DNA of 64,000 nt, taken from Myxococcales bacterium (lineage in GTDB: Bacteria; Myxococcota_A; Polyangia; Polyangiales; DASUME01). The position numbers and the translations under genes were made by a program. Positions 8,640 through 51,657 of this stretch are shown here, piece after piece (position 1 is the first letter of the stretch; the number at the start of each line of letters is the position of its first letter). A model generated the notes under the pieces. It was not told where the DNA came from. It made no database searches and was given only the letters and a program-made list of their open reading frames with translations. The stretch spans positions 3,040,001 to 3,104,000 of the forward strand of contig JASGJH010000001.1 in the NCBI GenBank assembly GCA_047601445.1, written 5' to 3'.

Positions 8640-9803
8640 GTGACCGAACGAGAAAGCAAGCCCTACGCCTATGGCGAGCGAGCCATCGAAGACATGTCGT
8701 CGCGCGCCTTTCACACTGGGCGCGGGCGCATCAGCGGCGTGTTGTCGCTCACCTTCGGCCTGCTGAGCCTCTTCGCCGTGCTGTGCTTTCGCTATCCGCG
8801 CTGGCTCACCACCGGCGAGCTGCGCGAGGTCTACGATGTCGACCTGCTGCGCAAGCTGCTCAGCGCGGCGATGACGATCTCGGTGGTGTCGGGGCTGGTG
8901 CCCTTCCTGCGCAATCAACATCGCCGCCTAGGCGCACTCGGTATCCTCGCCACCGCAGCCGCCTACGGACTCGGCGGTGCGAGCGTGCCCACCGGCTCGG
9001 TGAAGCCGAACCCCTACGCTGTGGGCCTCGACTGGTTCGTGCTCGATCTGTTGTTCTCGGCCGCGCTCTTCATCTTCATCGAGAAGGTGTTCCCGCGTTA
9101 CGTGGAACAGGCGATCCTGCGACCCGAGTGGCAGCTCGACCTGGTGTATTTCGCCGTGAATCACCTGGCCATCGGCCTCTTGCTGCTGGTGGGCAATCAC
9201 TTTGCGCCCTTGCTCTTCGATTGGGCGGTGAACGCGCAGCTGCAGAATTTCGTGCGAAGCATGCCGCTCGCGCTGCAGGTGCTCGCGCTCTTACTTTTCG
9301 CCGATCTCGTGCAGTACTGGGTGCACCGCGCCTACCACGAGGTGCCCTGGCTGTGGAAGATCCACGCCGTGCACCACTCGTCGGAGCACATGGATTGGCT
9401 GGCCGGTTCGCGCACTCATATCGTCGAGGTCTTACTCGATCGCTCGCTCGTCATGGTGCCGCTCTACCTTCTTGGGCCAGACAAGGCGGCGCTCGACATC
9501 TACGTGGTAATCGCGTCGCTACAGGCCGTCTTCGTCCACGCCAACGTAGGACTGCAACTCGGCGGGCTGAAGTACCTGCTCGTGACGCCTCAGTTCCATC
9601 ACTGGCACCACAGCAGCGACAAGCCTGCCATCGACACCAACTATGCAGTGCATCTGCCCTTGCTCGACGTGATCTTCGGGACTTATCACATGCCCGAAGC
9701 CCACTGGCCGATCCAGTACGGCACCCTCACCCGGCTACCTCGCACGCTGGGGGCCCAGCTCCGGTACCCCTTCGCAGGGGATCGTCCCGCCGCGGAGGAT
9801 TGA
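8640..9803 (+). CDS. Sterol desaturase / fatty acid hydroxylase family membrane di-iron enzyme
   Basis: His boxes HRAYH, HAVHHS, HAN, FHHWHH; multiple TM segments; GTG 8640 preceded by CAGGAG. Confidence 0.9.
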   Translation: MTERESKPYAYGERAIEDMSSRAFHTGRGRISGVLSLTFGLLSLFAVLCFRYPRWLTTGELREVYDVDLLRKLLSAAMTISVVSGLVPFLRNQHRRLGALGILATAAAYGLGGASVPTGSVKPNPYAVGLDWFVLDLLFSAALFIFIEKVFPRYVEQAILRPEWQLDLVYFAVNHLAIGLLLLVGNHFAPLLFDWAVNAQLQNFVRSMPLALQVLALLLFADLVQYWVHRAYHEVPWLWKIHAVHHSSEHMDWLAGSRTHIVEVLLDRSLVMVPLYLLGPDKAALDIYVVIASLQAVFVHANVGLQLGGLKYLLVTPQFHHWHHSSDKPAIDTNYAVHLPLLDVIFGTYHMPEAHWPIQYGTLTRLPRTLGAQLRYPFAGDRPAAED

Positions 9804-46785: not shown

Positions 46786-48360
46786 CTAGAACTTGACGTT
46801 GCCCTGCAGCGAGACGATGTCCTGTCGCGCGCGGAACGTCCCTTCGTTGACTGGCTGGGCCGGTACGTCGTTCGGCGGCTGCGCCGGGATGGCGGCGATC
46901 TCGGGGACCTTGCCACCGGCCACGGGCGCATTCACCTTGCCGTAGAACAGGTGGGCGTAGGCGAGCGTGAGCTTCACCATGCTGCCGACCATCACCGACG
47001 CGCCGAGGTGCAAGCCCACCTTCTGTTGGACGAAGTAGTCGAGGTTCATGTACGGCGAGCGCACGGCGCTCGACTCGTAGGAGAAGCCGGCGCGCAGCGA
47101 GAGCAGCGCCGGGATCACGTTGTAGTCACCGCCGACCCGGAAGCCGTAGACGTTGCGCCAGTTGTGGGGAATGTTGGCGTTGGCGGGCAAGGCCACCGCG
47201 GCTCCCGTAGGGTCCGAGGAGAAGTTGATCTTCGCCAGGTCGTTCGGGTTGCCCGCGTCGTAGAGCGTTAGCCGATAGTTGTTCACGTTGGCGGTGTTGA
47301 CGAAGTACGCGTCGAGCTCGACGTCGCCGACCTCGTCGCGCATCGGGTCGAACTTGGTGCCGTGGGTATGGCCGCGACGAACGATGCCATAGCGCCCACC
47401 GAGATAGACCTCCACGCGCTGGTACGGGACCTTGAGCGTGATGTCGTTCACGCGGCAATGGGGCCCGGGCATGGTGCTCTTGCAATCGCCTCGGGGCGCC
47501 CCCTGAATGCCGTTGGCCTGGGCGTCGAGGTGGCCGCTGGCGTTGATGTCCCCGTTGACGGTGACCTGGGCCATGATGTCCAGCGAGTCGATGGGCGAGC
47601 CGACGACGCTGAAGGTGGCGCGCGGTACGAACCAGTCCTTGACGTGAACCTGCGCCAACACTTCGGGATCGAGGAAGGTACTCCCTTGCACCGAGGACAC
47701 GTTCTTGAAGTTCACGTCGGCGAAGCCCGCGCCGAGGCTCACGCCCACGCGCAGCTCGGGCATGATCTGGTAGCCCACACCCGCCATCAAGAAGGCCGCC
47801 AACACGTTGCGTTCGAGCAAGAGCGCGCGGTTGGCCGACTCGGTGCCCGACGTCGTGATCGGGTATTGCTCGTTCGGCCGCGGATTCTGCGTGACGATGG
47901 TGTCGTCGCCGAACTTGAGCTTGGCCACGCCGGAGGGCGTGAAGAGACCGACGCCGAAGCCGAGCCCGTTATCGAAGGACATCGCGTAGCCGAGATTTCC
48001 GGTGGGAAAGACCTTGGTCTCGTTGCAGACCTTGTTGAAGGACTCGACGGCCTTGTACTCCTTGTCGGGATTCCGTGCGCGGTCGAAGCAAGCGTTCATG
48101 ATCGGCAGCCGCAGCTCGCCGCCCACGTCGCGCTTGTCGATCACGGCGAGGTTCGCGGGGTTCTGCCAGGTGGCCATGAAATCGCGCACGTTCACGTAGT
48201 TGGCGGCGCGTCCCAGCGCGATGCTGCCCGCAGGCGCGTCTTCCACACCGGCAGCCTGCGCTCGCGCGGCAAGCCCCAGCACGGCTGCAGACAACAGCGC
48301 GCCCCTCGCCCTGCGAGCGAAGCCGTGCTTCGCGCGCAGCGCCTTACGATCCCTCGCCAT
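46786..48360 (-). CDS. FadL/OmpP1-like outer membrane hydrophobic-compound transporter
   Basis: Signal peptide ...AQA-AG, ALGRA, hatch motif WQNPANL, beta-strands, LRAGFSYE, C-terminal Phe. Confidence 0.8.
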   Translation of the reverse strand: MARDRKALRAKHGFARRARGALLSAAVLGLAARAQAAGVEDAPAGSIALGRAANYVNVRDFMATWQNPANLAVIDKRDVGGELRLPIMNACFDRARNPDKEYKAVESFNKVCNETKVFPTGNLGYAMSFDNGLGFGVGLFTPSGVAKLKFGDDTIVTQNPRPNEQYPITTSGTESANRALLLERNVLAAFLMAGVGYQIMPELRVGVSLGAGFADVNFKNVSSVQGSTFLDPEVLAQVHVKDWFVPRATFSVVGSPIDSLDIMAQVTVNGDINASGHLDAQANGIQGAPRGDCKSTMPGPHCRVNDITLKVPYQRVEVYLGGRYGIVRRGHTHGTKFDPMRDEVGDVELDAYFVNTANVNNYRLTLYDAGNPNDLAKINFSSDPTGAAVALPANANIPHNWRNVYGFRVGGDYNVIPALLSLRAGFSYESSAVRSPYMNLDYFVQQKVGLHLGASVMVGSMVKLTLAYAHLFYGKVNAPVAGGKVPEIAAIPAQPPNDVPAQPVNEGTFRARQDIVSLQGNVKF

Positions 48361-48510: not shown

Positions 48511-48912
48511 TCAGGCGTTGTCTTCGCTCGAGGAAGGGTCGATCTCGTGTTCGAGATCGAGGATGAGCTGCGCGATCGACGGCGCCAACAGCGCCTCCTC
48601 GGCAACCGGGGAAATGCTGGCTTTCAGCCCGTCGCGCGCCAGCTGTGGCAACAACTGGTCGAGCAGATCGTCGAGCGGGATCTCGGCGGCTTCGTAACCC
48701 TGCCAGGGACCCTTGGCGCTGCGCTCCGCGCCCTCGCGCTCCGCCCAAAGTGGAAAGGTCGTTAGACCTTTCTCATCCCGTGAGAGAGCCCACCCATCGC
48801 GATACAAGCCCCACACGAGCTTGTTCTCCACTGCCAACTTCAGGAACTGCCGGTAGCGCACTTTGGGATCTCGCTTGGTTGCCACCTTGGGCTCCTGCGT
48901 GCCGACTCTCAT
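48511..48912 (-). CDS. DUF2750-like small protein
   Basis: RYRQFL...VWGL..DGW...PLWAEREGAE...W.GYEA.EIPLDDL pattern. Confidence 0.75.
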   Translation of the reverse strand: MRVGTQEPKVATKRDPKVRYRQFLKLAVENKLVWGLYRDGWALSRDEKGLTTFPLWAEREGAERSAKGPWQGYEAAEIPLDDLLDQLLPQLARDGLKASISPVAEEALLAPSIAQLILDLEHEIDPSSSEDNA

Positions 48913-49093
48913 GTCGCCCCCTGGGGTAGTGATTGCGCCAAGCCTACACAGATCTGGTCGGCTTGCACGCACGCACTCGCACTGGCTCCGCGCTTGGTAA
49001 CAGAGCGGAGACGCCCACGTTGCAGGAAGTGCCGGCTGGCCTCATATCCCCCAAGGCACGCTCGACTAGCGAGCGATGAGGTGAGAAGGGCCA

Positions 49094-50704
49094 ATGACCA
49101 TCACGAGTTCGAGCCAATCGCCAGTTTCAGCAATGAACTACGTGGCCGAAGGTACGGTCGACGACTCCGAAACGACACGTGACTTTCGCGACAAAATCAC
49201 CGAGTTCGTGATTCGCCACCGCTGGGCCAGCGTGGTCCCCGTGGTGCTGCCGCTCTCCAAGGTCTACGACACGTACTGGCAGCTGCGGCACGTCACGATC
49301 CGCAATCTCACGCGCCAAGTGGAGAAGCACGACTCCCGCGTGGCCGAGGTGAGCGCGCAGATCAAGCGCTGGATCGCGGCCGGCAAGCCGGGGCTCCTGC
49401 ACACCTCGCGCAAGAGCTGGCAGAGCGTTTCGGTACGCGCCATCGAATACAAGAAGAATTCCCCGAGCGGCATCGACGTTGACCTGCACGACATCCTCGA
49501 GCTCGACACCGAGCGCCGAACGGTGCGTGTGGAGCCGCGGGTCAACATGGCCCAGCTGACGGCCTTCTTGGCGCCCCGTGGTTGGACCGTGCCGGTGGTC
49601 CCCGAGCTCGACGACCTCACGGTGGGCGGGCTCGTCCTCGGATACGGCATCGAATCCTCTTCCCACAAGTACGGCCTGTTCGCGGACACCGTGAGGGCCA
49701 TGGAAGTGGTGCTCGGCGATGGGCGCGTGGTGCGCGCCACGCCCCAAGAGCACGCGGACCTGTTCTACGCGCTGCCGTGGAGCTACGGCGGACTCGGCAT
49801 GCTCACCGCGGTCGAACTGCCCATCATCCCGTGCAAGCCCTACGTCAAGCTCACCTACGTCCCGGTCAAGAGCCAGGCGGAGGCGTGCAGCGTGTTCGGC
49901 GAACTGGTCTGCCGCGAGAACCCGCCCGAGTTCGTCGACGCCCTGCTGTACACCAAGGACACCGGCGTCATCGTGGTGGGTGATTTCGCGGACCTGCCGC
50001 CGGGCGAAAAGCCCAACCGCATCGGAAACTACTACAAGCCCTGGTTCTACAAGCACATGGAGAGCTTCCTCGAGAAGGGGGAGGCCACCGAGTACGTCCC
50101 GCTGCGAGACTACTACCACCGCTACACCCGCAGCCTGTACTGGCACGGTGAGCTCCTGGTCCCGATCGGGAATCACCCGCTCTTCCGCTACACGCTCGGT
50201 TGGTTGATGCCGCCCAAGGTGTCGCTGATGCGACTCACTCAGACCAAGCGCATGCGCAAGTTCCGCGACGAGCGCAACGTGGTGCAGGACGCCCTGCTGC
50301 CGCTGCGCTTCCTCTCGGAGTCCATCGACATGTTCCACCAGGAATTCGAGTGCTACCCGGTCTGGCTCTGCCCACACAAGGTCTTCAAGACCCAGCCCCA
50401 GGGCGCGCTCAAGCCCTCGCTCCCGGGCGGCGACGAGATGTTCGTCGACGTGGGCGTGTGGCAGGTGCCCGGCTTCGTGAAGCGCAAAGAAAAGTGGAAT
50501 GGCCGCGTGGCGGTGAAGCGCATGGAAGCCTGGCTACGCGCACACCATGGCTATCAGTGTCTGTACGCCGTGACCGAACAGACGCGAAAGCAGTTCTGGG
50601 AGATGTTCGACGGCACGCTCTATCACAAGGCGCGCAAGACCTACGGCGGCGAGGGTGCGTTCATGGACGTGTTCGACAAAGTGAAGCGCCCCGAACAGGC
50701 CTGA
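49094..50704 (+). CDS. FAD-linked delta(24)-sterol reductase homologue (DHCR24/DWF1 family)
   Basis: VRVEP, VPELDDLTVGGL, GIESSSHKYGLF, DLFYALPWSYG, IGNYYKPWF, PLRDYYHRYTRS, FRYTLGWLMPPKVSL, YPVWLCP, FWEMFDG match recalled DHCR24/DWF1 motifs in order. Confidence 0.9.
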   Translation: MTITSSSQSPVSAMNYVAEGTVDDSETTRDFRDKITEFVIRHRWASVVPVVLPLSKVYDTYWQLRHVTIRNLTRQVEKHDSRVAEVSAQIKRWIAAGKPGLLHTSRKSWQSVSVRAIEYKKNSPSGIDVDLHDILELDTERRTVRVEPRVNMAQLTAFLAPRGWTVPVVPELDDLTVGGLVLGYGIESSSHKYGLFADTVRAMEVVLGDGRVVRATPQEHADLFYALPWSYGGLGMLTAVELPIIPCKPYVKLTYVPVKSQAEACSVFGELVCRENPPEFVDALLYTKDTGVIVVGDFADLPPGEKPNRIGNYYKPWFYKHMESFLEKGEATEYVPLRDYYHRYTRSLYWHGELLVPIGNHPLFRYTLGWLMPPKVSLMRLTQTKRMRKFRDERNVVQDALLPLRFLSESIDMFHQEFECYPVWLCPHKVFKTQPQGALKPSLPGGDEMFVDVGVWQVPGFVKRKEKWNGRVAVKRMEAWLRAHHGYQCLYAVTEQTRKQFWEMFDGTLYHKARKTYGGEGAFMDVFDKVKRPEQA

Positions 50705-50913
50705 TTCGCGCCCTTTCACGGATCGCAAACAGCCCGCTCCTCCACGCGAGCGCACGCTCGCACACGTGCGCTCGCGCCGAGCACGCGAATCCGCCGCGGA
50801 GAAGCCGCCAAAGTTGCGAGTCCCTTCTTGCGAGTGGTCGCCTGGGTGGCACATGTGATGAGGCTCCCGGGAGTCCAGGCTTGGAGCGCTTTCAGCGCGG
50901 GCAAGGAGGCGCC

Positions 50914-51657
50914 ATGGCAAAGGTTCGCATCGAAGACGGTTGGTTGGACGTGCGAGTGAGCTGGCTCGAGCGCGTCCTGCTCTCCGAGAAGGCCCGCCAT
51001 GTTCCTCTTTCGAGCGTCGAATCCGTGAACCCGCACCCTGCCCTGCTCGACATGCTGCTGTACTGGACCGATCAGCGTGGTGTCTGGCTGGGCGGCGCCA
51101 CCAAGTACGAGGGCTACCTGGTTCCAAGCACGCGCAATCCCAACAACACCATGTCCATCCAGGTGGCCGGTGAACAACCCTGGTACGTGGAGCTCGACGA
51201 TCAAGAGCCCGTGGCAGTGGCCGCCGAGATCGAGCGCTGCCTCGGCCCGCGCGTGCGAGCGCCCACGCCGTCGCAAGCGACCCGGGTGCTGCAAGCCCAC
51301 GCGCGACGAACCCAGGGTGTGGTCGTGGCGACCGCGCAGAGCGAGCTCGAAGACGACGATTGGGACGAGGAGCTTCCGATGTCCCGGCAGGAGTCCTCGC
51401 GGCGCGACAGCGGCGCATCACCGCTCGAGACTCAAGGCGAGCCCAGCCCCTCGCGTCTGCGTCTACGGCTCCACGAGGATCGCGACGTGTCTCGCCTCGG
51501 TGGCTGGCTGCTGGCTACCGGCGCCTTCGGCGTGCTGGCGGGCACGACCATCGTGGCAGCCGGGCATTTGCCTGGTTTGTTGGCCGTGGGGGCCGGACTG
51601 GCCTGCGCCATCATGGGGGGCTTGGCGCTCGCTCTGGTGGCTCATCACCAGGGCTGA
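50914..51657 (+). CDS. Hypothetical protein (beta-rich PH-like N-terminus, acidic linker, 2 C-terminal TM)
   Basis: AAGGAGG RBS before ATG 50914; C-terminal hydrophobic hairpin. Confidence 0.75.
   Translation: MAKVRIEDGWLDVRVSWLERVLLSEKARHVPLSSVESVNPHPALLDMLLYWTDQRGVWLGGATKYEGYLVPSTRNPNNTMSIQVAGEQPWYVELDDQEPVAVAAEIERCLGPRVRAPTPSQATRVLQAHARRTQGVVVATAQSELEDDDWDEELPMSRQESSRRDSGASPLETQGEPSPSRLRLRLHEDRDVSRLGGWLLATGAFGVLAGTTIVAAGHLPGLLAVGAGLACAIMGGLALALVAHHQG

Follow-up and report, generated by a model that had tools for sequence, protein, structure and literature searches.

A full-length DHCR24/DWF1-family flavoprotein from a Polyangiales genome belongs to the plant-DWF1 branch and may act after sterol C-24 methylation

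Plant DWF1 (DIMINUTO/SSR1) isomerizes the 24(28) double bond of the sterol side chain to 24(25) and then reduces it, and eukaryotes use either ERG4 or DWF1 (PMC6112714). These two enzymes yield opposite configurations at C-24 (PMC9883489). Specificity shifts easily within plants, as seen for SSR2 and 24ISO (PMC6112714, PMC8172173), and Capsaspora, which has ERG4 as well as a member of the subfamily described below, makes 7-dehydrocholesterol (PMC4967820). Bacterial homologues of DHCR24 appeared in print between 2009 and 2025 for M. capsulatus (PMC2817430), myxobacteria and methanotrophs (PMC4919349), Nannocystis (PMC10152446) and E. salina (PMC10202945), in a tree with many bacteria (PMC8237579) and in PMC12004948; the searched parts of the literature hold no assay of any bacterial DHCR24. 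According to the searched text of Wei et al., no C-24 methylation was seen (PMC4919349). In Fig. S18 of Hoshino and Gaucher, one Chromatiales and one deltaproteobacterial MAG protein are listed close to Capsaspora, a chytrid, red algae and DWF1 (PMC8237579). Brown et al. found bacterial SMTs to be active in vitro, and predicted C28 sterol synthesis for myxobacteria that they could not confirm in an isolate; in their lists, SMT adjoins ERG4 in two metagenomes and is two gene numbers away from DHCR24 in one MAG (PMC10070321). The roles of DWF1 and of a C-24 reductase are undiscussed in the searched text of that paper, and no tested bacterial DWF1 or SMT-DHCR24 link was found in the open-licence PMC and bioRxiv literature.

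We have analyzed a DHCR24/DWF1-family sterol side-chain reductase gene in a window of DNA, meaning here the whole stretch of 64,000 nucleotides under study, from a Polyangiales genome (G000) assembled as one contig of 9.5 Mb (98.7% complete, contamination 5.4%). The gene stands alone at window positions 49094..50704 on the + strand (start at G000:C1:3089094), as judged from its ORF, Pfam match, similarity and tree placement. It is a single uninterrupted frame of 536 codons plus stop, and its product is designated P0001. A GC3 of 0.885 (genome median 0.854) and a codon score above the 75th percentile of the genes called in G000 agree with the initial annotation, which had described a 536-aa ORF with host-like codons. 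A purine-rich stretch ahead of the start codon (49078..49090, +) is a likely ribosome-binding site, and the orthologue in G007 has the same MTITSS start and lacks the alternative Met14. The gene is single-copy in G000; two further matches are restricted to the FAD domain.

A scan of window positions 48700-51100 for sigma-70 promoters and terminators gave no match. The surrounding genes encode a DUF2750 protein, a FadL-like porin, a kinase, an SDR and a CoA transferase. None of these are sterol genes and they are common to genus members only, with the same neighbors in G007 and G004; an operon reading of the locus was dropped. The statement in the annotation that the window holds no cyclase or squalene epoxidase gene was correct, as both are 1.7 Mb distant. 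The FadL/TodX-type outer-membrane transporter gene (46786-48360, -) is divergent from the P0001 gene, past the DUF2750 gene, and is kept in G007 and G004; it could function in lipid transport. A fatty acid hydroxylase/sterol desaturase family gene of a common bacterial type is located at window positions 8640-9803 (+).

By its sequence, P0001 is a flavoprotein of the DHCR24/DWF1 family, complete in length and belonging to the branch of plant DWF1. A protein search with P0001 gave 1527 matches among 7999 scored. The best 78 after P0001 itself are 58-75% identical and, where named, are called 'delta24-sterol reductase' or FAD proteins, mostly from Polyangiales/Myxococcales MAGs; named eukaryotic family members come next at 46-51%. 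P0001 is collinear with eukaryotic members over ~93% of its length (about 500 residues) at 40-51% identity, with Mesostigma at 51%, Capsaspora at 48-50%, chytrids at 47-49%, a mollusc DHCR24 at 44% and seven land-plant DWF1-type proteins at 40-43%. Named DHCR24s match it full-length at E below 1e-159. Pfam/NCBIfam searches gave no match to any DHCR24 model; the Pfam PF01565 (FAD_binding_4) match at residues 127-215 (49472..49738, +) marks the FAD-binding part of a VAO/PCMH fold and contains GYGIESSSH. The AlphaFold model (pLDDT 82) has a VAO-type fold that matches DprE1, GALDH and CKX, and a PDB search found no solved DHCR24/DWF1-family member, giving weak FAD-domain matches only. N-terminal helices at residues 31-73 (49184..49312, +), with a conserved RW...LPLS segment, are a putative membrane contact on the basis of the model and alignment, while residues 1-28 are modeled with low confidence. 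The best 19-residue hydropathy mean of the N-terminus is 0.91 in P0001 versus 1.8-2.5 in eukaryotic members. Six proteins of ~900 aa (P0223, P0226, P0262, P0267, P0272 and P0323) are putative fusions whose C-terminal half contains a DHCR24-like domain.

Trees were constructed using FastTree (103 rows) and IQ-TREE with C20 (42 rows chosen from those 103). In the FastTree tree, P0001 groups with family members, apart from short bacterial relatives of 440-480 aa and from generic oxidases. The initial annotation had called P0001 a genuine full-length DHCR24/DWF1-family protein, a view that grouping with generic bacterial FAD oxidases would have overturned; P0001 falls with DHCR24/DWF1 instead, and full-length collinear similarity agrees with the tree. 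Both trees place it in a Polyangiales clade (100/100) inside a larger subfamily (100/100). This subfamily accounts for 26 of the 42 rows. Besides the DWF1-type proteins of land plants, it includes those of three chytrid-group fungi, Capsaspora, Mayorella and Mesostigma, together with gammaproteobacterial MAG proteins and proteins without a name. Outside it fall a red alga, the two animal proteins and two paralogue groups from marine myxobacteria. A 'deep-branching' position, as first suggested, thus gives way to nesting within the subfamily that holds plant DWF1. Forcing the P0001 clade together with the two animal DHCR24s was rejected (p-AU 2.5e-9), where the only two named animal rows are a mollusc and a copepod protein, one of them long-branched. 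Forcing the P0001 group as exclusive sister of land plants was weakly rejected (p-AU 0.020). The trees give no firm order inside the subfamily, and therefore no donor can be named. One outgroup row was misplaced in the 103-row tree and a further tree had an unclean root; the subfamily was unaffected by either. The Mesostigma protein (P0093) has its best matches among bacterial or unnamed proteins (56-62%) and lies apart from land plants in the tree, for which transfer, a paralogue or contamination are possible explanations.

All motifs quoted in the initial annotation are present in P0001. Three of them (ESSSHKYGLF, IGNYYKPWF and FWEMFDG.LYHK) had been taken as specifically animal-like, but they fit amoeba, chytrid, Capsaspora or plant proteins equally well or better, the animal side of this comparison being one mollusc protein. 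At 109 columns that are invariant in 8 plants and differ in the mollusc, the plant residue occurs 35 times and the animal residue 29 times in P0001, compared with 31 and 25 in Capsaspora and 33 and 32 in Mesostigma. The motif mix that had suggested an animal-plus-plant mosaic is thus common to other subfamily members, and a mosaic origin of P0001 was rejected. A long plant branch (about 1.0 change per column) accounts for the mix being general to the subfamily: it is the plants that have diverged, and the other members retain older residues. Two segments that may bear on substrate choice were followed individually. WHGELL (residues 350-355; 50141..50158, +) aligns with WEGKL in plants (117/120) and WEMEDI in the mollusc. 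YAVTE (residues 491-495; 50564..50578, +) is found in 78/78 closest relatives, in 118/120 plant proteins and also in chytrids; the mollusc has YADSY, and the segment is absent from Capsaspora and Mayorella too. A published residue rule for 24(28)->24(25) isomerization was not found in the literature searched, including the searched parts of PMC9883489.

The initial annotation had called for a genome search for oxidosqualene cyclase (OSC), squalene epoxidase (SE), CYP51 and sterol methyltransferase (SMT), and all four were found in G000. That the organism can supply sterols, as had been supposed, is supported by the presence of SE, OSC, CYP51, ERG24, SdmA-like, ERG2 and SMT genes, which are scattered, likewise in E. 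salina (PMC10202945). The OSC (E 8e-188 to human lanosterol synthase) has His232, Tyr381, Asn449 and Val453 in the alignment to human LSS, and Val453 points to lanosterol (PMC10152446). Directly ahead of it, G000:C1:4796802-4802260 (L011:8803-14261) encodes a 1138-aa fusion of squalene epoxidase, a cyclase-like barrel piece and squalene synthase (SQS); a similar SE-barrel-SQS protein occurs in G051 and G493. Clustered at G000:C1:9105517-9113122 (L093) are genes for an SdmA-like Rieske protein (E 6e-102, under the family cut-off), an adjoining SDR of 3-beta-HSD type, a 1091-aa aldehyde dehydrogenase-GMC oxidoreductase fusion, a TetR protein and CYP51. The single ERG4/ERG24-family gene (E 1e-111 to the solved delta14 reductase 4QUV) is ERG24-like and lies outside the branch whose cluster members bear the name delta24(24(1))-sterol reductase, and neither ERG4 nor DHCR7 was found in G000. 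Two ERG2 genes are present, and EBP was searched for and not found. Eight FA_hydroxylase genes are candidates for the C-5 desaturase, although the best-looking one (C1:9367898) drew only generic 'sterol desaturase family' names. In the SMT (340 aa, Sterol_MT_C), the Region I and Region II motifs that active SMTs share are intact. Its residue 81 is Tyr and not the Phe associated with repeated methylation (bioRxiv 10.64898/2025.12.19.695621, searched parts); therefore, it probably adds one methyl. Bsr had no real match in G000 (best tblastn E 2.6e-4), the query being a GGR gene from the sterol cluster in G051, regarded as Bsr because of its location and motif.

Further genes of possible sterol relevance were noted in G000. 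A CPI1-like cyclopropylsterol isomerase gene, identified from Atlas features only, occurs at G000:C1:7015864-7016745 (L116:1865-2746), even though the OSC has the lanosterol-type Val453; CPI1-like genes were found in 11/24 genomes searched. Two KshA_C-type Rieske oxygenase genes are located at G000:C1:8812006-8813034 and 2962449-2963528, and the Rieske gene from two metagenome sterol operons (L185/L186) has its best match in the former (34-36% identical).

Our reading of the sequence evidence, held with moderate confidence, is that P0001 would be a DWF1-like isomerase-reductase acting after SMT on 24-methylene sterols. G000 has SMT and one DWF1-subfamily protein, with neither ERG4 nor Bsr found, and the role of DWF1 is then most simply assigned to P0001; it is the SMT gene that makes this likely. 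The SE-SQS fusion would carry FPP through squalene to oxidosqualene, which OSC (Val at 453) would convert to lanosterol. C-14 and C-4 demethylation would follow by CYP51, ERG24 and the SdmA-like protein with the SDR, and delta8-7 isomerization by ERG2. SMT would then convert the 24(25) side chain to a 24(28) methylene, and P0001 would move the double bond from 24(28) to 24(25) and reduce it, giving a saturated 24-methyl sterol. Electrons would pass from NADPH through the FAD of P0001, with NADPH use and membrane attachment presumed from the family. P0001 probably also reduces unmethylated delta24(25) sterols. As no DHCR7 was found, we predict a final sterol that retains delta7 (24-methyl-cholest-7-enol or 5,7-dienol type) and is not campesterol itself.

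The main alternative, less likely but still strong, is plain delta24(25) reduction by P0001, as by animal DHCR24, SSR2 and the E. salina enzyme; P0001 would then compete with SMT and leave C27 sterols beside unreduced 24-methylene sterols. This activity is common to the family, and in the published accounts searched, the bacterial homologues of methanotrophs and Nannocystaceae accompany C-24-saturated C27 sterols. Plant specificity has flipped twice (SSR2, 24ISO), and therefore clade does not fix activity; the initial annotation was right to be cautious on this point. Capsaspora is also in keeping with a plain reductase, since an organism with a subfamily member and ERG4 that makes 7-dehydrocholesterol may use its copy as a 24(25) reductase (PMC4967820). 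The separation of the subfamily from animal DHCR24 in the trees argues against it.

The distribution of these genes was surveyed in 401 genomes of the order, many of them incomplete assemblies, by scoring the best 2-5 candidates per genome; DHCR24-like genes were found in at least 57, SMT in at least 79 and OSC in at least 129. The P0001 clade occurs in 11/401 (63-100% identity), comprising seven genomes of genus g1 together with G019, G493, G519 and G572. All 11 have SMT and 10 have a full OSC match, the eleventh having an OSC fragment beside SMT, and no ERG4 was placed in the 8 that were examined. The constant SMT partner and the lack of a placed ERG4 speak against a plain 24(25) reductase; the 11 genomes are not independent, because they are from three families and 7 are from one genus. 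DHCR24-like genes of any type occur in 29/55 genomes with OSC and SMT versus 2/74 OSC genomes without SMT (73 without the unpublished G478). This co-occurrence is a family-level pattern on few lineages: within family f8, SMT is present in 35/48 genomes with DHCR24 versus 27/40 without, which is no enrichment, and the eight SMT-positive genomes of f17, f16 and f13 gave no DHCR24 match. Bsr was detected in 19/57 hand-picked genomes, comprising 0/26 in f1 (the family of G000), f11 and f8, 10/10 in f22, where OSC is present with neither SMT nor DHCR24, and 9/21 others. That the P0001 clade occurs where Bsr, a proven 24(25) reductase, does not would fit simple replacement, which favors the plain 24(25) reductase. 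G001 has SMT and OSC, and no P0001 orthologue was found in its fragmented assembly. G019 has an OSC with Ile453 (cycloartenol-type), CYP51, CPI1 and SMT in a row, and SdmA beside its DWF1-type gene (L049, L110, L111), a sterol gene set that is plant-like for a bacterium.

Gene neighborhoods bear on the same question. In 4/79 metagenome loci (L185, L186, L197 and L201), the reductase TGA overlaps an in-frame SMT ATG (ATGA). These SMT-coupled reductases form a related bacterial subclade of the same subfamily (47-50% identity to P0001), and the coupling suits consecutive steps better than competing ones, which favors the DWF1-like role over plain 24(25) reduction. L185 additionally contains ERG24, OSC, SdmA, CYP51 and a KshA-type Rieske gene. 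The locus nearest outside the P0001 clade (L170) has its reductase among SE, OSC, SdmA and CYP51, with no SMT in 14 kb, while the L165 reductase adjoins OSC and that of L162 adjoins ERG2. In the remaining loci of the 79, many of them short or eukaryotic, no sterol gene was seen by the queries used. No SMT was found beside the P0001-clade gene in G000 or in the other P0001-clade loci examined, most of which are short contigs; the G019 copy follows SdmA. Chromatiales-type relatives (54-58%) had no SMT seen in their flanks. The published cases of ERG4 beside SMT in two metagenomes and of DHCR24 near SMT in a MAG (PMC10070321) are what mutual replacement of ERG4 and DHCR24 would predict.

Twelve genomes of genus g8 have a DHCR24 of another subfamily 0.1-1.2 kb from SMT (three loci inspected). 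G176 and G364 combine this SMT-linked gene with an ERG4-type gene, and therefore linkage to SMT is no proof of action on 24(28) bonds. The g8 operon was down-weighted as support for a DWF1-like role, given its different subfamily, the ERG4-type genes and the lack of enrichment in f8. ERG4-type delta24(28) reductase genes are present at L225-L228 in g8 myxobacteria (G036, G364, G016 and G176), and G016 and G036 have SMT and ERG4 with no DHCR24. On one low-GC contig, a stretch of 13 kb (L187:604-13110) contains a gene of the fatty acid hydroxylase family together with three of the DHCR24 family.

It is improbable that P0001 serves, with SMT, a KshA/Neverland-type Rieske protein and a CPI1-like isomerase, to remodel sterols taken from prey, possibly oxidizing its substrate to make the 24(25) bond for SMT. 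Most VAO-fold enzymes are oxidases, and SMT-Rieske-DHCR24(a) occurs in G176 and G216, which gave no cyclase family match and are 98% and 97% complete in 5-6 contigs; the CPI1-like gene of G000, despite its lanosterol-type OSC, and the resemblance of its KshA_C Rieske gene to that of the L185/L186 operons would also fit. However, the whole de novo route in G000 already yields 24(25) substrates, the gene in the genomes without a cyclase is of another subfamily, and no report of the reverse reaction was found in the literature searched, as far as its searched parts go. In the near-complete marine-type g8 genomes themselves (G176:C4 and G216:C4, at L133 and L135, and G558, none with a cyclase family match), remodelling of externally acquired sterols is likely. 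It is quite improbable that P0001 is a 24ISO-like isomerase that stops after moving 24(28) to 24(25), leaving 24-methyldesmosterol-type sterols: 24ISO arose in the same subfamily with the same cofactor need (PMC6112714) and SMT dependence would yield the same co-occurrence, but 24ISO is a late Solanaceae duplicate whose sister copies do the reduction, and G000 has one copy with no other reductase found. A generic FAD oxidase without a sterol link, or eukaryotic contamination, is highly improbable: in the libraries, DprE1, lactone oxidases and cytokinin dehydrogenases match P0001 over the FAD domain only, and the assembly has its 5.4% contamination, but those matches are at E 1e-14 or weaker, far under cut-offs (the best DprE1/lactone oxidase-type match at 53 bits versus a cut-off of 500), named DHCR24s match over the full length, and the gene has no introns, host-like codons and the same neighbors in G007 and G004.

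With the DWF1-like reading of P0001, we tentatively propose that an uncultured Polyangiales group may make side-chain-saturated 24-methyl sterols de novo with SMT and a bacterial DWF1, that Bsr may be used where there is no SMT and a DWF1-type enzyme where there is, and that DWF1 isomerase-reductase activity may be old in a bacteria-rich subfamily and possibly bacterial in origin. A bacterial copy of the family was already known; what looks unreported in the searched literature is that P0001 falls within the DWF1 branch, is tied to SMT and excludes Bsr, and a plant-style sterol ending (SMT plus DWF1) was not shown there for any bacterium. If true, the last side-chain step would be added to bacterial C28 sterol synthesis, in a genome of 9.5 Mb on one contig that has almost all of the pathway genes. 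Since DWF1 and ERG4 give opposite configurations, a bacterial DWF1 would end the use of plant-type C-24 stereochemistry as a eukaryote marker; that bacteria alkylate C-24, which matters more widely for biomarkers, is in print already. P0001 also bears on the origin of DHCR24/DWF1, for which a bacterial source is left possible in the searched text of PMC8237579. The less hydrophobic bacterial enzyme could suit structure work and yeast phytosterol engineering. If plain 24(25) reduction were instead its only activity, P0001 would be one more bacterial DHCR24.

Compared with animal DHCR24 (EC 1.3.1.72), P0001 has the same family and fold and 44% identity to the mollusc member, and databases give its relatives the DHCR24 name; it differs in its separate branch (p-AU 2.5e-9, two animal rows) and its lack of an N-terminal signal. 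To our knowledge, animals as a rule lack an SMT partner for DHCR24. The homologues of methanotrophs, Nannocystaceae (E. salina) and MAGs are likewise full-length bacterial members tied to sterol synthesis, but those cultured organisms make C27-type side chains (PMC4919349, searched parts); the methanotroph and Nannocystaceae proteins are tentatively placed relative to P0001 from a printed list. Bsr, a GGR-family C-24 reductase, also provides side-chain saturation in Polyangiales, but is an unrelated protein whose activity was shown on desmosterol and zymosterol (PMC12004948). The SMT-bearing bacterial sterol clusters of PMC10070321 are similar in that a myxobacterial genome combines a de novo pathway with SMT; they differ in that, in the parts searched, the Sandaracinus MAG sheet lists no C-24 reductase and DHCR24 appears once, in a Chromatiales MAG supplement sheet. 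Plant DWF1 differs in that P0001 is not its exclusive sister (p-AU 0.020), has a weaker N-terminal hydrophobic stretch and a shorter C-terminus, and has an activity that is predicted; the two are alike in their subfamily (100/100), their 40-43% full-length identity, the GYGIE and YAV[TS]E segments and the presence of SMT in the same organism.
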